Source: Microgenomates group bacterium Gr01-1014_7 (GTDB taxonomy: Bacteria > Patescibacteriota > Microgenomatia > Daviesbacterales > UBA10151). From it: a DNA stretch of 64,000 bases. The stretch spans positions 8,159 to 72,158 of the forward strand of contig VMGD01000002.1 of assembly GCA_007376405.1 (NCBI GenBank). Reading direction: 5' to 3'. Position numbers and translations under genes: made by a program. Every line of letters begins with the position of its first letter. Position 1 is the first letter of the stretch. Positions 1 to 10,949 of this stretch are shown piece by piece. The notes beneath the pieces were generated by a model. It worked only from the letters and a program-made list of their open reading frames with translations. It ran no database searches and had not been told where the DNA came from.

Positions 1-8
1 GGGGCGAT

Positions 9-1196
9 GTGACAGCCCTAATTGGCTCAAAAACCTTTGACAGAACTCCGGAAGGTGACCGGACTTTCTATAATTTTGGGCCACTGACAGTTGCACTAAC
101 TGGTTGTCAAAACTCTCTAGAGATGGAAGAAGTTGTTAGATCAGGAAGAGAAATGGCAGGTAAACTATTTATTCCTGATGAGTTAAACAAATTTGATCAA
201 GATGCTCTGTTTGGTGCTCTAAAGATTGCAGCCACTCTTAGGCCAGGTGAATTTTTTAACTTTAAAGAATTACCAGGAGTTAGGTTACGGATGGCAAAGA
301 AAGGTGTTGCAATTGTCGCTACCATGAATCCTGCTACTGCCAGGTATGAGAGAAAAGTACTTGATCCGGCGTTAGATAGATTATTTTATGATGGCAAAAA
401 GAGAATAGACTACCCGCCAATGACTCCTCAAGACCCGGAGCTTTATGAAATATTCTTGGGTATTTTAATGGATGATAACGGCAGAATTAGAATACCTAGA
501 GAAGATCTGGTACCAGCAAGAATAGAATATAAAGTTTCGGCAGCAGGGTTAATTAAACAGGTAATTGATCCTGAAGTTGCTCATCATGGGGCGCTTTATC
601 GTTTTTCTCTGGCTGCAGCCGAAATCCATAAAAGCTTTAGTCAAAAAGATAGTGTGGCTAAGACTGCAACCGACCCAGGATTTTTAGAAAAGACAGTTTT
701 GGAGATGGAGGTTTTAGTTAACTGGATGGAAGGGTACTCTACAGAAATAGAAGGTGGAGTTTCATTGCCAACTTATATAGGAAAAAAACTTCATGATTTT
801 TATACTAATATAGACAGCCAAAATGATAAAGTTATATTTGAGCGGGTATTTAGGCATTTTGGCTTTGATATCCAAAGTCCAAGAGAAATGGCAAAAGCTC
901 CTTATAGAGCTTTAACTCCTGTTGAAATTGGCTACTTAACTCCCAAGTCACCAAGAGAAGTCAGAAAAGAAGGTGATGAGGTAACTCCTTCATCAAAAAT
1001 CTACATTGACCCTCAGACCGGAGAAGAAATAAACTACCTCCCGGTAGATTTGGAAACAGAAGATGAACCATTACCTCCGGAAACTGTTTTTGAGTGGGAA
1101 GATGGCAGACAATACATGTATCTGGGCCAAAAAGTAGAAGGTGGAGAACCACTATATATACCAATGATGGTAGAATCTGATAAACAAACAACATAA
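9..1196 (+). CDS. AAA+ ATPase (MoxR/AAA_5-like) C-terminal part with a long C-terminal extension; probably 5'-truncated by the window edge
   Basis: The ORF is open to the window start. It has a sensor-2-like motif, VAIVATMNPATARYERKVLDPALDRLF, which resembles MoxR/dynein-type AAA+ (ATxNP...R..LDxAL.DRF). The gene ends 10 nt before the DGR target gene. Confidence 0.45.
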   Translation: MTALIGSKTFDRTPEGDRTFYNFGPLTVALTGCQNSLEMEEVVRSGREMAGKLFIPDELNKFDQDALFGALKIAATLRPGEFFNFKELPGVRLRMAKKGVAIVATMNPATARYERKVLDPALDRLFYDGKKRIDYPPMTPQDPELYEIFLGILMDDNGRIRIPREDLVPARIEYKVSAAGLIKQVIDPEVAHHGALYRFSLAAAEIHKSFSQKDSVAKTATDPGFLEKTVLEMEVLVNWMEGYSTEIEGGVSLPTYIGKKLHDFYTNIDSQNDKVIFERVFRHFGFDIQSPREMAKAPYRALTPVEIGYLTPKSPREVRKEGDEVTPSSKIYIDPQTGEEINYLPVDLETEDEPLPPETVFEWEDGRQYMYLGQKVEGGEPLYIPMMVESDKQTT

Positions 1197-1206
1197 GGAT
1201 AAAATT

Positions 1207-2037
1207 ATGCCAACTGAAACACTACCATTTGATCCCAACCAAGTACCTAAATTACTAAAAGAGGGTAGGATAAAAGTAGTCAGGAGCCCTCAAGTTACGT
1301 CTTCAGAAAGGGCAGTTTCTACTGATAGGATGACAGAGAGGGCAAAAGATATTTTAGGAAAGGATTTTCTGGGTGTAGAGGCCGTCAGAAATATGGAGGC
1401 AAAACTTAAAGGTGTAGGACAAGCAGTCGAATTTGATACTGCCGCTCTCCCGCCAATCCCTTATACGGAAAAAGACCTTGAGCTAGCCCGTCAACATGGA
1501 GAAATGCTTGTTCTGCGGGTGGGATTAATGCGTTTAGGCGGAAGGGAAGTTCCGCTATCACTTATAAATTTTAGGGAACTATTTAGAACTGATCCACTAA
1601 ATAAGTTATCAACGCCTTACTTCGCATTTAGAAGCGATGCTAATGATTGGTATAAAGATCAGCCTTTTGCAACTAAGGGTGGTGAAATTGGCTTATCTTG
1701 GGCTTTGGTAGCAAAAAACATACTACCAGGCTCAAATAGTAAGACTTTGAACCAACAGGCTCGTGTAATGGAGACTTATGCAACCAATTTACAAAGCCAA
1801 GGTGCAAGTAGAACTGAATTTAGAAGAAGAACTGCCACAGAAGCTGCTTATGATACTTTGTTATATTATGTCAACAATGGTGAGCAATTACTTTCAGATA
1901 AATATGACTGGACTCAAACGCGCACGTCCGACGGCCGCCTCGTCCTTGTTGGGTACTTTGACTCGGGCGGTCTGGGCGTGGACTACTGGGATCCGACGCT
2001 TCAGTATCCGAACATCGGTGTGTGTCTTTCCCGGTAG
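1207..2037 (+). CDS. DGR target (variable) protein; the C-terminal ~40 aa are encoded by VR and probably form a CLec/FGE-like variable ligand-binding fold
   Basis: The ORF ends exactly within the VR. Its C-terminus, ...VGYFDSGGLGVDYWDPTLQYPNIGVCLSR, resembles the ...NxGFRCxR ending typical of CLec/FGE-fold DGR targets. The TR-encoded version is Asn-rich (AAC codons). Confidence 0.75.
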   Translation: MPTETLPFDPNQVPKLLKEGRIKVVRSPQVTSSERAVSTDRMTERAKDILGKDFLGVEAVRNMEAKLKGVGQAVEFDTAALPPIPYTEKDLELARQHGEMLVLRVGLMRLGGREVPLSLINFRELFRTDPLNKLSTPYFAFRSDANDWYKDQPFATKGGEIGLSWALVAKNILPGSNSKTLNQQARVMETYATNLQSQGASRTEFRRRTATEAAYDTLLYYVNNGEQLLSDKYDWTQTRTSDGRLVLVGYFDSGGLGVDYWDPTLQYPNIGVCLSR

Positions 2038-2040
2038 TTT
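1917..2040 (+). repeat. DGR variable repeat (VR)
   Basis: VR is about 84% identical to 3777-3900. Every mismatch except the last pair (2033-2034) corresponds to an adenine in the other copy, and the substitutions go to G, C or T. The 3' 27 bp (2006-2032) are identical, consistent with IMH. Confidence 0.8.
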
Positions 2041-2075
2041 TAGGTACTTGAATTCTTGATTCCTTAGTACTTGTA

Positions 2076-2090
2076 CCCCGCGGCGCGGGG
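2076..2090 (+). other. GC-rich hairpin (ccccgcg-g-cgcgggg) immediately downstream of VR; a DGR cruciform/stem-loop candidate
   Basis: It is a perfect 7-bp GC stem with a 1-nt loop, 36 nt after the VR end, in an otherwise AT-rich context. Confidence 0.55.
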
Positions 2091-2109
2091 TCAAGGCAAA
2101 TTTTACAAA

Positions 2110-3162
2110 TTACTCTGTTAACCAATACCAAATCAAATTTTCCAGTTCTTTTCGGAATCTGTAAGCATTGGCATGGGTAAGATAGCCAAAATAGGATTGA
2201 ATGGTTTGGTTTAAACTATCTTCAGTGATTTTGCCGGATTTAAACTCATTAATTTTTGCTTTAATTTTTCTAAGCAGCCTTCTTTTAGTTTTTGTTCTTG
2301 GTAGAATATGATTGGGAAATATAATGTAACCTAAAAAATCTATTCCGCTTCCGAATTTCCCAAAAATAATTTTATCCGGATGAACCTGTAAAGCTAATCT
2401 TTCATTTAAAAATCTTTCAATGTGAGGAATTAAGCTCTCTAAATATAACTTATCTTGAGAAAGGATCACAAAATCATCAGCGTATCGAAGATAATATTTT
2501 ACCTTTAGCTTATGCTTCACAAATTGGTCAAGTTCGTTCATATAAATATTGGAGAAAAATTGGGATGTCAGATTACCAATAGGTATACCCTTTTTGTCTG
2601 TAAGATCAACTGTTCTGTCGGAATAAAAACTATCAATTATTTTCCAAAGAAGGTTAAGAAAATCTTGATCTTTAATTTTCCTGGAAAATATTTCAAAAAG
2701 AATTTTATGGTTTACTGATGGAAAAAACTTCTTTATATCCAGTTTTACTGACCAGCAAGTACGTTTATTATTTCTACTTACCCTCAGGGCCATTTTTTGT
2801 AAGGCGAATATTCCTTTATGTGTACCCTTATTTTTTCGACAAGAATAGGAGTGAGAAATAAAAGTAGGCTCAAAAATTGGCTCAAGCTCATTGCTGACTA
2901 TATGGTGAACTATTCTATCTATAACAGTGGTCTTATGAATTAAGCGTAGCTTTGGATCCCGAACATAAAAACTGCTATATGTACCCGGATGATATGTCTT
3001 CTCCTGAAGAAGCTTACAAAGATTGGCAAAATTTTCCGGGAAATTTTTCATAAAAAGCTTAACATCTTTCTTTTTCTTCTTACCGACTAAAAACTCTCTC
3101 CAACCACGAAAAATATTTTCCTTTGTGGTAAGATTGCTGTAGATATTATGGTAGATTTTCAT
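2110..3162 (-). CDS. DGR reverse transcriptase
   Basis: RT motifs are present: the YADD box (RYADDFVIL) and the DGR-specific motif IGNLTSQ (I/LGxxxSQ). The N-terminus follows the Y..L...ENL pattern. The gene lies between VR and TR. Confidence 0.9.
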   Translation of the reverse strand: MKIYHNIYSNLTTKENIFRGWREFLVGKKKKKDVKLFMKNFPENFANLCKLLQEKTYHPGTYSSFYVRDPKLRLIHKTTVIDRIVHHIVSNELEPIFEPTFISHSYSCRKNKGTHKGIFALQKMALRVSRNNKRTCWSVKLDIKKFFPSVNHKILFEIFSRKIKDQDFLNLLWKIIDSFYSDRTVDLTDKKGIPIGNLTSQFFSNIYMNELDQFVKHKLKVKYYLRYADDFVILSQDKLYLESLIPHIERFLNERLALQVHPDKIIFGKFGSGIDFLGYIIFPNHILPRTKTKRRLLRKIKAKINEFKSGKITEDSLNQTIQSYFGYLTHANAYRFRKELENLIWYWLTE

Positions 3163-3510
3163 TCACCCTGGCAGGATATACCCTTATTTAATAAAACTTA
3201 CGAGCTCTATAAAACTTTCTACGAATACCTATTGTTGTTCCCCCGAAAAAATAGATATACCATTGGACAAAAATGTGAAACAATCTTACTTGAAACATTA
3301 GAAGCGATTATTCTGGCCAGTAACCTCTCTAAACAAGAAAAATTACCGGTTCTAAAAAAGGCCAGCATGAAGTTGGATGTAGTGAGAGTGTTCTTTAAAC
3401 TGGCTAAGGATATAAAAGTTTTAGAAAATAAAAAATACCAAGTACTTGAATCCCAAACTACAGAAATAGGTAAGATGTTAGGTGGGTGGATTAAAGCTTC
3501 TCAAATTTAA
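3148..3510 (+). CDS. Avd-like accessory variability determinant (four-helix-bundle protein, TIGR02436-like)
   Basis: It is a 120-aa basic helical protein with a C-terminal ...EIGKMLGGWIK ending, like four-helix-bundle/Avd family members. It lies directly upstream of TR on the same strand and diverges from the RT with a 15-nt start overlap. Confidence 0.55.
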   Translation: MVDFHSPWQDIPLFNKTYELYKTFYEYLLLFPRKNRYTIGQKCETILLETLEAIILASNLSKQEKLPVLKKASMKLDVVRVFFKLAKDIKVLENKKYQVLESQTTEIGKMLGGWIKASQI

Positions 3511-3776
3511 ATACAGTATTTTAATCTTTAGAATTTTATGATAATCTGTTTATGGAAGGTTAAAAATCTTCCCTTCTTTTGTAGGTCCCAGAATTCTAAT
3601 TAGCACGTCTAATTAGGAGCGCGGCCAAAAAGAAGTAATGAAACTACTTGCTCTTTTCTGGCGCAGATTCTTTAGAGCTTCAGCTCGCAAGCTGTGCTTA
3701 ATTGATACTGCCGAAAAAATATACAGAGAAGATACATTTGATAAATTCTCAGTGATCAGAGGGAAAAGGGCAATGG

Positions 3777-3900
3777 AAAGCGCACGTCCGACGACAACCT
3801 CGTCAATGTTGGGAACTTTGACTCGAACGGACTGAACGTGAACAACTGGAATCCGACGAATCAGAATCCGAACATCGGTGTGTGTCTTTCCCGACAGTTT
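3777..3900 (+). repeat. DGR template repeat (TR)
   Basis: This is the adenine-rich copy (~32 A). Adenines at the VR-mismatch positions are intact here. Only spurious ORFs cover it. Confidence 0.8.
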
Positions 3901-3909
3901 CAACCTAAA

Positions 3910-3947
3910 AAGAAGCTCTCTTGGTTAAGGGAGCTTCTTTATTTTAA
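3910..3947 (+). terminator. Rho-independent terminator-like hairpin after TR
   Basis: The sequence aagaagctc-tcttggttaagg-gagcttctt forms a perfect 9-bp stem and is followed by tttatttt. Confidence 0.55.
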
Positions 3948-4475
3948 AAGTTACTCAAAAAGAATAATATAGACTGCAAAGACAAGAAAATAAAACTCGC
4001 GAAAATTTTTCCAGCTCAAAAGGAATTTAACAAAATTAATGAAGTGAAACGAAGTAAAAAGTGAAAAGCAGCGCTAATTCCCCTTTTTTGTAACTCCGAT
4101 TCAATTATAGTAGCGATCCCGCCGAAGGCGGGAGAGCGAAGCGATACAATGCGTTGATGGAAAATTTAAAGTACCTTTTTCTTAATCTCACTTGCGATGT
4201 TTATATTATTAATATTGTTTCATAATTTATATTCCCCGCTGTGGCGGGGAAACTCTGGCAAAAAGCGAAAGGAATTTGAATTTTTGCTACTTGTTTTTTC
4301 TGCCGGCAGTTTGTAATATTGTAGATGTAGTCAAACTTTCCCATTCGGCTTTTTAATGGGCATCTTGGGCAAATCCGAATGGGTTTGACTACACCAAGGT
4401 GCCCTTTAAAGTGGAGAAATGGTGAAGTTGGAATAAATCCAACTTCACACCTTATCCCACTTTACCTATTAAATT

Positions 4476-6041
4476 ATGGAACAAACTGCCTTTAACAGTA
4501 ATAATTCGCAAAAATTCTTTTTATATGCTCGCAAGTCTACAGATGTAGAAGATAAACAAATGCGGTCTATTCCGGATCAACTGTTAGAACTAAGGGAATA
4601 TGCCAAGCGTGAAGGATTATATATTGTTGAAGAGCTAACAGAGGCTAAAACTGCTAAGGCTCCGGGTAGAGTGGTTTTTAATAGTATGCTTTCTAGAATA
4701 GAGAATGGTGAAGCGGAAGGTATTGTAGCTTGGCATCCGGATAGACTTGCTCGTAACAGTATAGATGGTGGGAAAATTATTTACCTTCTTGACCTTGGGA
4801 AACTTAAAAACTTAAAGTTTCCCCAACATTGGTTTGAAAATACTCCTCAAGGTAAATTTTCCCTTAATATGGCTTTTTGCCAAAGTAAATACTTCGTGGA
4901 CTCGCTTTCAGAAAATACCAAAAGAGGAATCCGCCAAAAAGTTAAAAGGGGTGAAATGCCAGGACTTGCACCAGTAGGTTATTTAAACATAATGACTAAT
5001 AACAGGAAAATTATAGTCATTGATAAAAAGCGTGCTCTTATTATAAGACAAGCTTTTGAAATGTTTGCTACGGCTAAATATCGTATTCAAGATATTTGCA
5101 ACTTTCTGGCTGAAAATGGCATGGCAAAGGCCAGTGGTAAGCTTTGGAAGAGCGATCGGGTAAGTAAGCAGATACTTTCCAATCCTTTCTATTACGGCCA
5201 TTTTAAATATATGGGCGAGATCCACGAAGGGGTTCATCAGCCAATCATTACAAAGAAACTGTGGGACGCAGTCCAAATCGTGTGGAGGAAGCGAAGTCAT
5301 TCCTGGAAAGAGATGAGACCACAAAAACCTTTAACAGGACTTTTTCGTTGTGGTGAGTGTGGTATGATGATTACCGCCGAACTCCAAAAAGGCTACATAT
5401 ATTATCGTTGTACGAAAAAGTCTAAGGTAAGATCCTGTTCTCAGTTATATATTCGGGAAGAAGAGTTAGATCGACAATTATCAGATCAAATAGCCACAGT
5501 TTCTTTGAGGCAGGATTGGGCAGATAAAATGTTGGCTAAGTTATCGATAGAGGAAAAAAATGTAGCCCAATCCTGTGATATGTTTGTTGGAGAAAAGCAA
5601 GCAGAGATTAAATCTATCAATGAAAAACTCCAAAGACTCCTTGATTCTTATTTAGAGCAAGACATCGAGCGTGAGGATTACCTTGTTAAAAAAGCAGATT
5701 TGCTTGCTTTAAAGAAAAAATTAGAGGAACAAATTTTATCTTTCCAACAAACCAAAAATGCTTGGCTCGAACCAATGAAACAATGGATAGTGGAAGCCGC
5801 CGCGGCGGCTAATATCGCAAGAAGTAAAGACTTAAATGCAAAAAAGGTACTTGCTCAAAAAATCTTCGGCTCGAACCCCACACTAAAAGACAGAAAGGTA
5901 TATTGCAACGCTCTAAACATATGGTCCGCCCTACGGGCGGACCCGCCAACTCGGGACTCGGAGCCGACAGCGGGAATTGAACCCGCGACCCCGTTCTTAC
6001 CAAGAACGTGCTCTACCACTGAGCCATGTCGGCAGAAATGA
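4476..6041 (+). CDS. Large serine recombinase (resolvase/invertase-type N-terminal domain, recombinase domain, zinc ribbon and coiled coil)
   Basis: The N-terminus FLYARKSTDVEDKQ carries the catalytic Ser. A zinc-ribbon CGECG...YYRC and a long coiled coil follow. The last ~26 codons run antisense through tRNA-Thr, so the true stop may be functionally irrelevant. Confidence 0.85.
   Translation: MEQTAFNSNNSQKFFLYARKSTDVEDKQMRSIPDQLLELREYAKREGLYIVEELTEAKTAKAPGRVVFNSMLSRIENGEAEGIVAWHPDRLARNSIDGGKIIYLLDLGKLKNLKFPQHWFENTPQGKFSLNMAFCQSKYFVDSLSENTKRGIRQKVKRGEMPGLAPVGYLNIMTNNRKIIVIDKKRALIIRQAFEMFATAKYRIQDICNFLAENGMAKASGKLWKSDRVSKQILSNPFYYGHFKYMGEIHEGVHQPIITKKLWDAVQIVWRKRSHSWKEMRPQKPLTGLFRCGECGMMITAELQKGYIYYRCTKKSKVRSCSQLYIREEELDRQLSDQIATVSLRQDWADKMLAKLSIEEKNVAQSCDMFVGEKQAEIKSINEKLQRLLDSYLEQDIEREDYLVKKADLLALKKKLEEQILSFQQTKNAWLEPMKQWIVEAAAAANIARSKDLNAKKVLAQKIFGSNPTLKDRKVYCNALNIWSALRADPPTRDSEPTAGIEPATPFLPRTCSTTEPCRQK
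5962..6033 (-). tRNA. tRNA-Thr (anticodon GGU)
   Basis: The reverse complement folds as a canonical cloverleaf: acceptor GCCGACA/TGTCGGC, D-arm GCTC-AGTGGTA-GAGC, anticodon loop TTGGTAA, T-arm GCGGG-TTCAATT-CCCGC, discriminator T. No CCA is encoded. Confidence 0.75.
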
Positions 6042-6112
6042 GCCTCCTGGCAGAATCGGACTGCCGTCATATGTTTACAAAACATACGCACTAACCACTG
6101 TGCTAAGGAGGC
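6041..6112 (-). tRNA. tRNA-Thr (anticodon UGU)
   Basis: The reverse complement gives acceptor GCCTCCT/AGGAGGC, D-arm GCAC-AGTGGTTA-GTGC, anticodon stem TATGT/ACATA with loop TTTGTAA, and T-arm GGCAG-TCCGATT-CTGCC. The T-loop is atypical (C at position 55). Confidence 0.65.
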
Positions 6113-6169: not shown

Positions 6170-6406
6170 GTGACTCAATTATCAAACAAGTATCCTTTGG
6201 AAGAAAGAACAGCAAAATTTGGTGAAGATATTATTAAGTTTTGTAGAGTCTTAAAAGTAGATACAATATCCTTACCTCTTATAAGCCAACTTGTAAGGTC
6301 AGCAACTAGTATAGGAGCAAATTATATGGAAGCTAATGCAGCAAGTTCAAGAAATGACCTTGATATGCCAAAAGATTACTTCAACATTAAGAGGGAAATA
6401 GTTTAA
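6170..6406 (+). CDS. Four-helix-bundle protein (23S rRNA IVS protein/TIGR02436-like), apparently C-terminally truncated
   Basis: The motif SIGANYMEANAASSRNDL matches the family signature (S.I..NIAEG..R.S..DF). It is only 78 aa against ~115-125 for the family. Confidence 0.45.
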   Translation: MTQLSNKYPLEERTAKFGEDIIKFCRVLKVDTISLPLISQLVRSATSIGANYMEANAASSRNDLDMPKDYFNIKREIV

Positions 6407-6764
6407 TTACTCAGTAATTGATAACTGAGAACTTATTGAAAATTGAAAAATGTAAACTAAAAATTAAATAAGTACTCCCTACTATAGTCGTTAAGCCAAT
6501 TATTTTCCCCCTAAATTGAGGTGGGTGTCCTGGTCCGATAGAGATACTCTCATCGGACACTTCGAACTCCCTTAAAGTAACAAATATCGAAGAAAAAACT
6601 TTGGCTTTTAAACGTGCAAAGCAGGGATCAGGCAGAGCCTGGGTCCCTTAGGCCATCTACTAAATGTCCTTTAGGATAATTTAACAGTAGCACTAAAATA
6701 AATCTCTTGTCAAGGGGTTAAAACTTGACAAAAGATTATGTGTATGCTAATGTGTATGTGTATG

Positions 6765-7004
6765 TTAAACAGAAGAACAAATTTCCTTTTAAATAAGGAT
6801 GTATTGGATAAGTTGGTTAAACTTTCCCGGACTCGCAATATTTCTATGGCAGAGGTTGTTAGAAGAGCAGTAGAAAAAGAGTATGAGGAGGAAAAAGAGC
6901 TGGAAACAAGAAAGAAAGCAATAGATGCGACCCTAATGGGAAGATTAATGTCTAAAGGTAAAATTGATTACAAAGAGCTGATTAATTATGGCCGCAAATA
7001 TTAA
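6765..7004 (+). CDS. vapB: Ribbon-helix-helix (CopG/VapB-like) antitoxin
   Basis: It is a small RHH-like N-terminus. It overlaps the downstream PIN-domain gene by 17 nt. The start was chosen at MLNRRTN after the TGTGTATG microsatellite. Confidence 0.55.
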   Translation, partial: LNRRTNFLLNKDVLDKLVKLSRTRNISMAEVVRRAVEKEYEEEKELETRKKAIDATLMGRLMSKGKIDYKELINYGRKY

Positions 7005-7380
7005 AAAATACATTGTAGATGCTTCTTTTGTTCTTTCCTTTTTACTTCCCGATGAAAATCACCAAGAGGCAGATTTGTTTTTTAATCAATATAAAGCCGG
7101 CATCATTAATTTTTTATCTACACCGTTGTTGCCTTTTGAGGTGGTAAATGGATTAAAGTTAGCAGTTATTAGAAAAAGGATCAGTTCAAAATACGCAAAA
7201 GAACGAATGAAAGAATTTTTTAATTATCAAATCAGACTTGTGGGCACAGATTTTTTTGAAGTTTTTGACTTGGCCCAGAAGAATAATTTAACTGTTTATG
7301 ATGCATGCTATTTATATCTGTCGAGGATTAAAAAGGCCCAGCTTCTAACATCCGATGAAGCTCTCCAAAAATTAATTTAA
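6988..7380 (+). CDS. vapC: PIN-domain toxin VapC
   Basis: The N-terminal YIVDASFVL.. has the PIN acidic residue. The C-terminal LLTSDEAL matches the typical ..T.D pattern. Confidence 0.7.
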   Translation: MAANIKKYIVDASFVLSFLLPDENHQEADLFFNQYKAGIINFLSTPLLPFEVVNGLKLAVIRKRISSKYAKERMKEFFNYQIRLVGTDFFEVFDLAQKNNLTVYDACYLYLSRIKKAQLLTSDEALQKLI

Positions 7381-8015
7381 AATCCAAGCAGGCCGGAAAA
7401 TAGCCTTACAAAAAAGCTTAAGATCGTTTGCAGAAGAGAGCTTGAGCCAAAAGGAATTATCAGTAAAAGCATCAGAATTAAGAATCCATATGGTTCAATT
7501 CTCTGGTAGCTTTTAGCCATATTAAGGGGAAGTTGAGAAAGCAGTATTTTTGATCCGTCCAGGGGAGGAATGGGAAATAAATTAAATACTCCCAGAACCA
7601 GGTTAATTACCATGGTATAGCGCAAAAGGCTGCCTACTAATGCAGGAAAAACAAAAGGTATGGCATCAAGGAGATGATAAAGCAAGGCTGCAGCAATGGC
7701 CAGAGTGAAATTAGCCAGAATTCCGGCTGCAGAAACAAACAGTTCTCCCTTTCTGATTCTGGAAAAATTTAGCGGATTAACAGGCACCGGCTTGGCCCAG
7801 CCAAAAAGAATGGGGGAGCCGGTTAAAATTAACAGGCCCGGAAGTAAGATTGTGCCAAAAAGATCTATGTGAGGAATGGGGTTTAAGGTTAATCTGCCTG
7901 CATTTGCGGCGGTTCTGTCCCCAAATTTTAAGGCCACCAGCCCATGCATGACTTCATGGACTATGACTGAGAATAAAAGTATAACAATAGATAAGGCTAG
8001 AAATTCAGGGTTCAT
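7377..8015 (-). CDS. Peptidase M50 (site-2 protease family) membrane metalloprotease
   Basis: The motif HEVMHGLVA (HExxH) sits in TM helix 1. The protein has a multi-TM hydrophobic profile and a C-terminal LDG motif. Confidence 0.7.
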   Translation of the reverse strand: MNPEFLALSIVILLFSVIVHEVMHGLVALKFGDRTAANAGRLTLNPIPHIDLFGTILLPGLLILTGSPILFGWAKPVPVNPLNFSRIRKGELFVSAAGILANFTLAIAAALLYHLLDAIPFVFPALVGSLLRYTMVINLVLGVFNLFPIPPLDGSKILLSQLPLNMAKSYQRIEPYGFLILMLLLIIPFGSSSLLQTILSFFVRLFSGLLGF

Positions 8016-8282: not shown

Positions 8283-10157
8283 ATGGCATCTTTAGAAATT
8301 TTAACAGCAGAACTCGAAGCACATTCCAGGGGTGGAGTCAACCCAAATCTTACTGTAGGAGCTCGTAACCGTTCACAAAGAAGAAGCATAAAAGACCCGT
8401 TTGCTCGGGAAGCAGAGTCCTGGCTTGCCAGGGGAAACTCACTTGCTGTTGTACTAAATCGAACTCGAAAGCTATTATATGAGAGTGTAATTTTCTTTGA
8501 GCGAGATATCACAAGAATGATTTATCAAGGCAGTCCATTTATAGGGGAATATTTAAGTGCAATACGCAGGCTTCCTGATTTTTTGGCAGAAGCTTCAATG
8601 GCTAATTTGCGCCTAAACTTTACAACTCCTGAAAGTCTGGCCTCAATTGAAACTCAAAACCTGTTTGAAAGATCGGTTGGTGGAATAACTCTTCTTGATA
8701 TTGAAAGGATGCAACTGCCACTTTCATCGGCAGATATAAGCGGAATTAATAGAATATTTTATCCGAGATTAATTGATAGAGTGATCCCTCATAAACTTAA
8801 TCCTTTTAAGGAGGCAGTTGATCATGGCTTGATTCGCCAAGCTGCCATTTTACTTGCTACCCAAAAAATGGCAAGACTTAATGAAAAAGTTAATATCCCT
8901 TCTAATGTACAATCGCTTTATTCCCGCCTGAGCGCTTATTTTGATTATTATACTCACCTGATGACAGATTTTTCTATGGATCAAGTAGAAGATTCAAATT
9001 TTTGTAATATTTTGCTTTGGGGAAGACCGGGACTGCCTCAGTTTTTAGGTTGCTATATCCCGGGACGTTTAGGGATAACCCCTGCCTCAGCCATAAAGCT
9101 TTTTTATGAAAGAGCTCAGAATTCTTACTTGCCTTTTCTTTATTGGGGATCTGATAGAGCTTTAAGAACTCCAATAGGAATTCTTACAAAAGGTGCAAGG
9201 GATGCTTATCCTGGGAACGGATTGCCTGCTGATTTGCAAAAATATTCACACTTCGATCCTCAAATGGACAAAAGTGCTTCTGAGTGGTTGCTTAAATTTT
9301 ATCAAGGGATTGCAAATGAAACGGCAGAAGAAACAGACAGAAAGTTTTTAGGATTAAGAGAGACTATTTTCCAGGATATCCAAAGCGCTCCATCAAAAAG
9401 ACAGGAGGTTACTTTACCGCAAGAGCATACCATAAGAAGGATTGTCTTAGCAAGACAATATCGCCAAACTTTAATGATAATTTTGCAATTTGCAGATAAC
9501 CAAACTCATCTGACTTTAGAACATGCCATGAATTCACCGGATGGTATTGATAAAGAAGATCATGTTTATGGATGGCCGAGAGAGTTGATCAGAGAAAACC
9601 CTCAACTTACCAGTGTAATAGCTACGGATTTATTAGCCAAAATTGTTCAAGATACTTTAAGAAGGCATCCGGAGCAAGAAGTTAAACCCCGCAGGGTTTT
9701 TCCCGGCGAAGCTACTCTTCCTTATTACATACCAAGTTTTCCCCAAGAGTCGGAGGAGATTCGTTTGCCTGTGCTAACAGGGAAAGGAAGACGACACTTT
9801 CCTAAAATATTAACTCCAATTCAACAAGTCCTTGCAGGAGAACCTAATCCACCAGCCCAAAGAGAAAGATTATTAAGAAAGTTTAGGGTAGATTATTCAA
9901 GGACTCAGATTGAGGAGTTTTTACCCAGGAATGCCCCTCAGAATACAATTGATCAACTTATGAAAGCAATTAGGTCGTTTGAATATGGGAGAGGAAACTT
10001 TAAAAGATTCAAAGAAGATCGTACGGAGGGAGAAAGTTTGTGGGAACTTCGAACAGGAGACTATAGACTTCTTTTAAAACATAAAGAGGGTCAGATTTTT
10101 TCTCTAGAGAAAGTAGGTCATAGAAGGGAAATATTTAGTCAACGGAGGAGAGGCTAA
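8283..10157 (+). CDS. Large hypothetical protein with a C-terminal RelE/ParE-like toxin fold
   Basis: The C-terminal ~90 aa, ...GESLWELRTGDYRLLLKHKEGQIFSLEKVGHRREIF, match the RelE/ParE signature (LWELR.GdYRiiY...il.IgHRkdiY). The N-terminal ~530 aa have no recognizable family. Confidence 0.5.
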   Translation: MASLEILTAELEAHSRGGVNPNLTVGARNRSQRRSIKDPFAREAESWLARGNSLAVVLNRTRKLLYESVIFFERDITRMIYQGSPFIGEYLSAIRRLPDFLAEASMANLRLNFTTPESLASIETQNLFERSVGGITLLDIERMQLPLSSADISGINRIFYPRLIDRVIPHKLNPFKEAVDHGLIRQAAILLATQKMARLNEKVNIPSNVQSLYSRLSAYFDYYTHLMTDFSMDQVEDSNFCNILLWGRPGLPQFLGCYIPGRLGITPASAIKLFYERAQNSYLPFLYWGSDRALRTPIGILTKGARDAYPGNGLPADLQKYSHFDPQMDKSASEWLLKFYQGIANETAEETDRKFLGLRETIFQDIQSAPSKRQEVTLPQEHTIRRIVLARQYRQTLMIILQFADNQTHLTLEHAMNSPDGIDKEDHVYGWPRELIRENPQLTSVIATDLLAKIVQDTLRRHPEQEVKPRRVFPGEATLPYYIPSFPQESEEIRLPVLTGKGRRHFPKILTPIQQVLAGEPNPPAQRERLLRKFRVDYSRTQIEEFLPRNAPQNTIDQLMKAIRSFEYGRGNFKRFKEDRTEGESLWELRTGDYRLLLKHKEGQIFSLEKVGHRREIFSQRRRG

Positions 10158-10568: not shown

Positions 10569-10849
10569 TTAAAATTGGGTCTATATTTTTTAGGTAAGGT
10601 TTTAATATATTCGTCTGCTAACATTTTGCCAACTGCTTCAAAAGCTTTTTTCCTATCCCATTTAATATTAGTTTTTAAAGAGCCGGCTAATTCATTTATC
10701 AGCTGACTATTAGTTTTAATTACCAATTGACCATTTATATCTTCAAAAATAATTTTATCACCTGGCTTAATTCCAAATTTTTCTCTCATTTGGTTGGGAA
10801 TAGTGGCCTGACCTTTAGTAGTAACAGTGGAGCTGTACGTATTAAACAT
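10565..10849 (-). CDS. AbrB/MazE/SpoVT-type antitoxin
   Basis: It has a swapped-hairpin motif, GQATIPNQMREKFGIKPGDKI. It is the first gene of an operon with the PIN gene, and a TTGACA-17-TATAGT promoter lies upstream on the minus strand. Confidence 0.65.
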   Translation of the reverse strand: MFNTYSSTVTTKGQATIPNQMREKFGIKPGDKIIFEDINGQLVIKTNSQLINELAGSLKTNIKWDRKKAFEAVGKMLADEYIKTLPKKYRPNFK

Positions 10850-10949
10850 AGTATTACTACTATACCATAAGTATTACTTTTTGTCAAGGGTAATACAGGG
10901 CAAAAATTTGACATTTGCCTTTTTTTTTTGCTATAAATGAAGAGAAATT

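Follow-up and report, generated by a model that had tools for sequence, protein, structure and literature searches.

A retroelement cassette combining MoxR-like ATPase, VWA and hypervariable lectin-fold genes in Patescibacteria

Diversity-generating retroelements (DGRs) are strongly enriched in bacteria belonging to the Candidate Phyla Radiation (CPR) (Roux et al. 2021, PMC8144416). In the account that Doré et al. 2024 (PMC10907252) give of Paul et al. 2017, the commonest architecture of CPR DGR targets is a fusion of an AAA ATPase with a C-type-lectin (CLec) domain, and a transducer role was proposed for the ATPase. These fused targets were placed with DGR clade 2 of Roux et al. 2021 (PMC8144416), and most CPR reverse transcriptases (RTs) form a clade apart from the RTs of multicellular bacteria (PMC10907252, PMC8144416). 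MoxR-vWA systems with DGR-diversified FGS/CLec domains were described from cyanobacteria and gammaproteobacteria (Kaur et al. 2020, PMC7159879), and DGR-diversified lectin-fold domains were proposed as sensors in MoxR-vWA 'ternary' conflict systems (PMC7159879, PMC10907252). Here, a DGR cassette was analysed at the start of a stretch of 64,000 nucleotides (nt) from contig VMGD01000002.1 of Microgenomates group bacterium Gr01-1014_7 (the window), in which the gene of a MoxR-like ATPase is followed by that of a free-standing variable protein, target B. Loci and proteins taken from other assemblies carry L and P numbers, respectively.

The locus corresponds, in unfused form, to the AAA-CLec targets known from CPR bacteria. 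Both belong to the same lineage (Patescibacteria/CPR) and to the same target domain family, both parts are homologous, as seen with the fused protein P0139, and the targets of the locus are devoid of transmembrane (TM) segments and recognisable N-terminal domains, as is reported for CPR targets. The locus differs from the fused targets in that ATPase and target are split genes, that the free target has gained or kept a leader of 25 amino acids (aa), and that two to three targets per cassette are interleaved with ATPase and VWA genes. The basic association of ATPase, CLec domain and DGR is already known; what is added here is the pairing of split and fused forms, the leader common to the targets, the VWA partner and the setting on a mobile element. 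A literature search, with Paul et al. 2017 outside it, returned no description of a CPR cassette with MoxR, VWA and several free lectin-fold targets.

The upstream DNA of the cassette was recovered from a 9.3-kb contig (L001), which is identical to the window over the shared 1,923 nt and adds 6.5 kb. The full cassette encodes, in this order, a VWA protein of 872 aa, target A of 260 aa, an ATPase of 681 aa and target B of 276 aa, after which come the RT (minus strand), the accessory protein Avd and the template repeat (TR) of the DGR, and window positions 1-4000 hold the 3' two-thirds of it. With target A, which bears a variable repeat (VR), upstream and target B downstream, the ATPase gene is therefore flanked by two DGR targets. 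The ATPase gene ends 10 nt before target B, exactly as described in a first-pass annotation of the window, and this spacer (1197..1206, plus strand) contains an AAGGA ribosome-binding site.

A total of 28 loci were fetched and annotated with one script for the analysis of synteny, which covers some 15 different cassettes of Microgenomates, Yanofskybacteria, Nomurabacteria, Saccharibacteria and Paceibacterota. The contig scan of genomes with the ATPase alignment returned no relatives and the metagenome scan returned one locus; a narrower target-family alignment found 11 related loci. In type A cassettes, which lie on Microgenomates-type contigs, the ATPase is 53-71% identical to that of the window and the order is VWA (870-880 aa), target, AAA_5 ATPase (670-705 aa), target, RT (minus), Avd (plus) and TR. 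This order was kept in the window with L001, in L003/4, in L024/5 and in L026/7. L005/6 has an extra target upstream of the VWA gene and follows the type A order up to the target after the ATPase, where the contig ends, and L009 and L028 have the ATPase with targets on both sides. Type B cassettes from Yanofskybacteria, Nomurabacteria, Saccharibacteria, Paceibacterota and other Patescibacteria are arranged as RT (minus), Avd (plus), TR, (target), AAA_5 ATPase (556-564 aa), target, VWA (662-664 aa) and target, and a serine recombinase is often next. Between the two types, the ATPases could be aligned only in the AAA+ core and lid (28-29% identity), and the C-terminal 300 residues of the VWA proteins are 27% identical. 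The two genes, whose separation in related genomes had been raised in the first-pass annotation, were found together: a target directly follows or is fused to the ATPase in 7 of 8 type A cassettes and in all 7 type B cassettes with a visible ATPase and downstream flank. The junction in these relatives is a gap of 1-30 nt or an overlap of 8 nt. In L023 (10001-18684), a type A variant, a 392-aa gene lies between target and ATPase and a 508-aa gene follows the ATPase, and this locus has either decayed or is served in trans. In a further relative, L018 (694-5705), a target paralog lies 3 nt after a different, divergent AAA-like open reading frame (ORF) and is followed by two small proteins. An ORF of about 513 aa in L018, judged by its translation, is presumably a phage terminase large subunit and another presumably a DNA methyltransferase, so the target family may also occur in prophage-like contexts.

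The link between ATPase and target was also observed within single proteins. A profile search of 1.84 billion cluster representatives gave a target family of 3,040 members when matches with E ≤ 1e-3 were counted, and of 1,593 members with E ≤ 1e-10. Among the best 150 matches, 30 proteins were at least 550 aa long, with the target domain at the C-terminus. Pfam placed AAA_5 N-terminal to the target domain in 20 of these 30, while the other long members carried a ClpB-like AAA_2 (1), a protein kinase domain (1) or no Pfam domain (8). In P0139 (918 aa), residues 1-672 are 71% identical to the ATPase of the window (P0001) and aa 676-918 match the target profile with an E value of 4e-83; the ATPase runs straight on into the target domain and the leader is absent. 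The contig of P0139 opens with the last part (3' end) of an upstream target and its hairpin element, which shows that P0139 belongs to a cassette of this kind. These fusions agree with the account of CPR targets in PMC10907252. In the window, the two parts are split, and a stop codon, 10 nt and the 25-aa leader stand between the ATPase and the lectin domain. An origin of the fusion as a read-through or frameshift artefact was ruled out for P0139, in which the leader was deleted and not read through, and the fusions amount to 20 independent ones.

The ATPase frame in the window (3..1196, plus strand) is open from position 3 to the stop codon at 1194-1196, and its translation is 100% identical to residues 285-681 of P0001, the full 681-aa protein known from other assemblies. 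With P0001, the upstream sequence sought in the first-pass annotation was recovered, including Walker A, which lies with the rest of the 5' part upstream of the window. No Pfam or NCBIfam model matched the window fragment alone; full-length P0001 matched AAA_5 (PF07728) at aa 252-412 with an E value of 1.5e-7. An alignment of 26 homologues showed that Walker A GETGxGKT (aa 254-261), the Walker B residues D343-E344 (178-183, plus strand), TMNP and the arginines of R..LDPALDRLF are invariant or nearly so. The block ATMNP...LDPALDRLF (319-386, plus strand) was present and of MoxR/AAA_5 type as the first-pass annotation had stated, whereas its labelling there as sensor 2 did not hold: in standard AAA+ nomenclature the R..LDPALDRLF/TMNP block is the sensor 1 and arginine-finger region. 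Besides these motifs, the ATPase part in the window comprises the lid, a region of helices and, at the C-terminus, a domain rich in beta strands. The top fold matches were the CbbQ/NorQ type members of MoxR-VWA pairs, and the ATPase is by its predicted structure of MoxR (CbbQ/NorQ-like) fold, with the catalytic motifs intact. It differs from CbbQ/NorQ in having a helical N-terminal extension of about 245 aa and a C-terminal extension of about 270 aa, absent there, and its sequence similarity to them is marginal (E 0.054). When the alignments of ATPase, target and VWA protein were searched as profiles against the sequences of the PDB, only marginal or spurious matches were obtained.

The VWA protein (872 aa, L001:2974-5592) is encoded two genes upstream of the ATPase. 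The protein itself had no Pfam match; its C-terminal 300 aa are homologous (E 3e-20, hhalign probability 99.2%) to a VWA protein of another CPR cassette, which matches Pfam VWA with an E value of 6.9e-7. In the family of 22 homologues, 4 of which reached Pfam VWA, the residues D688-x-S690-x-S692, T779 and D814 of the metal-ion-dependent adhesion site (MIDAS) are invariant. The residues C458, H504 and D521 are likewise invariant in the 22 homologues, in the context DCYLAREFF...GHAWVK...WII.DPTP, in the style of a transglutaminase core. Type A and type B VWA proteins carry different putative peptidase-like modules N-terminal to the VWA domain. In addition, a second homologue of the VWA protein was found on another contig (115 kb) of the same metagenome-assembled genome, namely P0137 (1133 aa), with 45% identity over 81% of the query. 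P0137 is annotated as 'recombinase' and carries Recombinase and Zn_ribbon_recom domains, and may represent a second cassette copy, a recombinase-VWA fusion or a mis-call.

Target B (1207..2037, plus strand) encodes a soluble variable protein of 276 aa with a C-type-lectin/formylglycine-generating-enzyme-like (CLec/FGE-like) domain, and is 100% identical to the hypothetical protein G01um10147_138 of Microgenomates group bacterium Gr01-1014_7 and to the database entry P0029. Pfam and NCBIfam gave nothing useful on it. The structure model, built with 49 homologues, had a predicted local distance difference test (pLDDT) score of 92.6 and showed a globular domain that is preceded by a short helix near the N-terminus (aa 10-18) and by a linker that is disordered (aa 27-37; 1285-1317, plus strand; pLDDT below 50). 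No significant match to the PDB was found for the model with Foldseek. The model supports the CLec/FGE-like fold on which the first-pass annotation had made its reading depend, and both targets of the cassette have this fold and bear the VR in their last 39 residues. The C-terminus also ends in ...NIGVCLSR as that annotation had noted, compared with a family consensus of ...LGVCPSR. Its remark that no N-terminal signal peptide or TM segment is present was borne out, as no signal-peptide-like or TM-like hydrophobic segment was found in target B (maximum 19-residue Kyte-Doolittle mean 0.92). No Sec/Tat-like signal or TM segment was found in any cassette protein.

Target A is 42% identical to target B (E 3e-63). 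The conserved N-terminal leader of target B (MPTETLPFDPNQVPKLLKEGRIKVV, 25 aa; 1207..1281, plus strand) is identical to that of target A in 25 of 25 residues, compared with 33% identity in the protein middles. Generally, target paralogs within each cassette share 72-100% identity in their first 25 residues, and the protein middles are 33-59% identical in type A cassettes. This leader pattern was kept in 8 cassettes, and up to 12 of the 25 codons differ synonymously. Since identical leader residues are encoded by different codons, the conservation is held at the protein level by purifying selection, beyond recent gene conversion, which was ruled out as the general cause of identical leaders. 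The leaders of the window's own target pair carry 3 synonymous differences only, and for this pair gene conversion is a possible cause. Because it is conserved, stands on a disordered linker and is missing from the fusion P0139, we infer that the leader is a docking or targeting peptide common to the targets of a cassette.

The locus is a full DGR member, with RT, Avd, a TR/VR pair and a 3' hairpin all present, and the DGR presupposed in the first-pass annotation is thus genuine. The RT (350 aa, 2110..3162, minus strand; RVT_1 E 1e-27, PADLOC RT model E 7e-47) and bAvd (120 aa, 3148..3510, plus strand; PF22296 bAvd E 8.8e-19) genes are placed adjacent to each other between VR-B and the TR. VR-B (1918..2034, plus strand) forms the final 39 codons of target B, and the TR (3778..3894, plus strand) lies on the strand of Avd, opposite to the RT. 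Comparison of VR-B with the TR showed 19 mismatches, all 19 at TR adenines, plus the stop-codon position; the probability of this adenine-only pattern by chance is about 4e-11 at 28% A. The TR has 33 adenines, 31 of 32 being in codon positions 1-2, and 11 AAY codons. VR-A, the last 120 nt of target A on L001, differs from the window TR by 25 mismatches at TR adenines and by 3 further non-adenine mismatches, one of which is the stop-codon position. One TR serves both VRs through adenine-specific mutagenesis. The pattern of two or three VRs was also found in L003, L007, L011, L012, L014-L016, L024 and L026, and loci with the TR in the fetched DNA had 2 or 3 target paralogs with adenine-biased VRs. 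Most of these VR/TR pairs differ exclusively at adenines, and at least 81% of the differences are at adenines in every pair.

A conserved element follows VR-B (2038..2091, plus strand) and ends in a GC-rich hairpin, ACCCCGC-GGC-GCGGGGT, at 2075-2091. This element of about 55 nt stands after both VRs of this genome (second copy at L001 ~6384-6440), after both VRs of L003 and in L028, and was not found after the TRs of this genome and L003. A target-recognition hairpin is known 3' of the VR of phage BPP-1, and by analogy the hairpin at 2075-2091 is probably the DGR target-recognition hairpin. A terminator-like hairpin was seen in the sequence 3' of the TR (about 3909-3945). The DGR layout is unusual in having the RT on the minus strand and Avd and TR on the plus strand, with the starts of RT and Avd overlapping by 15 nt (3148-3162). 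With this arrangement, the TR would be transcribed together with avd and not with the RT. In type B cassettes (e.g. L007, TR 4044-4166) the adenine-bearing TR strand is inverted relative to the VRs, and avd lies between TR and RT on the opposite strand.

Evidence for activity came from L003 and L004, independent assemblies of one type A sister element, which differ at 14 of 16,575 nt. A total of 13 of these 14 differences fall in the VR of the upstream target (7783-7903), all at TR-adenine positions, and such VR-confined TR-adenine differences indicate that the DGR of the sister element is active in nature. The VR of the downstream target (10770-10890) is identical between the two assemblies, which suggests that the two targets in one cassette diversify at unequal rates or are under unequal selection. 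The element in the window is represented by a single VR-B sequence, and VR-A was identical in its two assemblies.

The cassette was further compared with three groups of described systems. The VMAP ternary systems likewise combine a MoxR-type ATPase, a vWA domain and a DGR lectin-fold domain, their targets are often predicted to be cytoplasmic, and they have a peptidase-type domain associated, transglutaminase-like peptidases being rare there. In those systems, the lectin-fold domain is usually fused to vWA, with VMAP as the third component, and the hosts are multicellular bacteria. Here, in contrast, no VMAP domain was detected, the targets are free (260-305 aa), the VWA proteins end with the VWA domain and carry the putative peptidase-like domain themselves, and the hosts are unicellular, ultra-small CPR bacteria. 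The locus is therefore not a VMAP ternary member as defined, and shares with these systems the logic of MoxR, vWA and DGR-CLec. In CbbQO and NorQD, a MoxR hexamer and a VWA adaptor act on a client, and the mechanism proposed below is modelled by analogy on these pairs and also on the MoxR-vWA ternary systems with their proposed lectin-fold sensors. TvpA of Treponema denticola and Mtd of Bordetella phage BPP-1 have in common with target B the CLec/FGE-like fold, the VR on the C-terminal strands, an AAY-rich TR and a GC hairpin 3' of the VR. Target B is 11-13% identical to them and not significantly similar by Foldseek; both of them are extracellular, TvpA as a lipoprotein and Mtd as the tip of a phage tail fibre, whereas target B is without an export signal.

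Overall, it is probable that the variable proteins act for an ATP-driven machine inside the cell and not at the cell surface. The full reading, in which cytoplasmic DGR-varied lectin-fold adaptors serve a MoxR-VWA machine, is given a probability of roughly 0.55. The free-standing targets would be interchangeable hypervariable ligand-binding adaptors, each docking non-covalently on the MoxR-VWA complex via the shared leader on its disordered linker. Ligand binding in the cytoplasm at the diversified face of the lectin fold would be linked to remodelling that the MoxR hexamer drives with ATP; the VWA protein would act as MIDAS adaptor, and its putative peptidase-like domain (transglutaminase-like in type A, HELMAH in type B) would be the output. 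Such a machine could be an anticipatory sensor or capture module, most plausibly for conflict, defence or host-interaction functions of a mobile element. The more specific version, with two to three hypervariable adaptors plugging interchangeably by a common docking leader into one MoxR-VWA-peptidase machine as an antibody-like anticipatory sensor, is a tentative and somewhat doubtful proposal. The suggestion in the first-pass annotation that the target is intracellular, or handled by a partner, agrees with the synteny and the fusions, short of proof.

Several observations weigh against this reading. The docking role of the leader is drawn from its conservation and its absence from P0139, the sole fusion read residue by residue; the fusion P0142, inspected by eye, shows no comparable leader, and the later profile starts in other fusions may have arisen from the alignment itself, as an artefact. 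Alternatively, the leader might serve as a signal for export or targeting. The transglutaminase-like domain is represented by a motif, the invariant triad and a weak Pfam Transglut_core match (2 of 22 homologues, best E 1.5e-3), and type B VWA proteins (e.g. L007:8014-9999) have an invariant HELMAH (HExxH) at aa 94-99 and no transglutaminase triad. The type B locus L012 is without an ATPase, and in L023 extra genes stand beside the ATPase and an RT is missing within 10 kb. Scans for promoters and terminators did not exceed chance level, so that the likely co-transcription and translational coupling of the cassette genes are deduced from spacing only. PADLOC had no defence model for the window-type ATPase, VWA protein or target, and Pfam, in a copy that includes models from the Kaur et al. 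study such as bpMoxR, found no VMAP-type third component in any cassette protein of either type. Finally, conjugation and type IV secretion system (T4SS) genes surround the cassette in one relative, which leaves room for an export-related role.

That relative is the sister element L003/L004, and its surroundings speak for extracellular targets. In L003/L004:743-18049, a VirD4/TraG-like coupling protein and Replic_Relax lie on one side of the cassette, and radical-SAM, NUDIX, TrbC/T4SS pilin, TraC-like and VirB4-like genes lie on the other, with a serine recombinase at one end, which is the setting of a conjugative element within a CPR genome; relaxase-like genes also flank L024-L026. The targets could accordingly be imagined as extracellular adhesins with which the episymbiotic CPR cell, or the conjugative element, binds host or recipient cells, with the leader as a non-canonical secretion or pilus-loading signal and MoxR-VWA as a maturation or loading chaperone. 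A conserved leader shared on a flexible linker is what a targeting signal is expected to look like, and the classic DGR targets Mtd and TvpA are surface proteins. A host-interaction role for a subset of CPR/DPANN DGRs is also mentioned in the account of Paul et al. 2017 given in PMC10907252. This explanation is nevertheless unlikely. The cassette proteins are devoid of Sec/Tat-like signals and TM segments, no T4SS genes were found within 10 kb of type B cassettes, and the lectin domain is fused in many relatives to a cytoplasmic-type ATPase of about 650 aa, in P0139 with no leader, which is hard to square with export. Moreover, T4SS signals are normally C-terminal, and here the C-terminus is the VR.

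A chaperone role with no part in sensing was considered as well, in which MoxR-VWA would be dedicated to folding or clearing the hypervariable proteins and the targets would function independently of the ATPase. CbbQO and NorQD, client-specific maturation or remodelling chaperones, are also the top fold matches, and random mutagenesis of 19 codons should yield many unstable variants. The CLec fold, however, tolerates DGR variation unaided in Mtd and TvpA, and most DGRs elsewhere have no such chaperone. A covalent fusion of client and chaperone would be unusual for a folding helper, and with its putative protease-like domain the VWA protein points to an output and not to folding; this role is distinctly improbable. 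Coincidental neighbourhood, with ATPase and VWA genes as cargo or conjugation functions and the targets inserted or duplicated around them, could draw on the fluid gene order of mobile elements and on the gaps in L012 and L023, but is effectively excluded by synteny and fusions, as the three components are interleaved in two cassette types of different order (ATPases 28-29% and VWA proteins 27% identical), with tight or overlapping junctions and frequent AAA_5-target fusions.

The cytoplasmic adaptors favoured here would be carried by a mobile element. Downstream of the TR, a large serine recombinase (4476..6041, plus strand) with Resolvase, Recombinase and Zn_ribbon_recom domains was identified, the 3' end of which overlaps a tRNA-Thr(GGT) gene (5960-6033, minus strand), the overlap being 82 nt. 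A second tRNA-Thr(TGT) follows at 6040-6112, and the Rfam scan gave these two tRNAs only. Beyond the tRNAs, the housekeeping genes MreB, PBP2, ClpB and formyltransferase were found. The succession of recombinase, tRNA and housekeeping genes places the DGR at the right edge of an integrated element, with an integrase beside a tRNA at the chromosomal junction as in integrative elements, and the serine recombinase, at the right end of the cassette-bearing element, is probably its integrase. The recombinase/tRNA region (4476-6112) looks like an integration junction, and serine recombinases flank related cassettes. Just outside the element by the tRNAs, a 78-aa ORF (6170-6406) matches the first half of the 23S_rRNA_IVP/four-helix-bundle family, to which Avd belongs (E 2.2e-5), and may be a truncated remnant. 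An overlapping pair of RHH_1 and PIN-domain genes directly after the tRNAs (6738-7380) is probably a VapBC-type toxin-antitoxin. In addition, a 624-aa ORF among the housekeeping genes (8283-10157) had no Pfam match at E ≤ 0.001.

For a single large target family, with about 3,000 cluster representatives, the cassette offers a definite answer that can be tested, namely that its variable proteins would work with a MoxR ATPase and a VWA protein inside the cell. The split and fused forms with the shared leader turn the function of CPR targets into a direct question of interaction; if the interaction of leader and target fails, an ordinary though well-documented DGR locus remains. If the reading is true, the MoxR-vWA-DGR link, so far tied to multicellular bacteria, would reach the smallest known bacteria and mobile elements, and a function would be given to the cytoplasmic DGR targets of CPR bacteria, which is an open question (PMC8144416). 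Bacteria with minimal genomes, or their conjugative elements, would then gain an anticipatory sensor for invading or host molecules.

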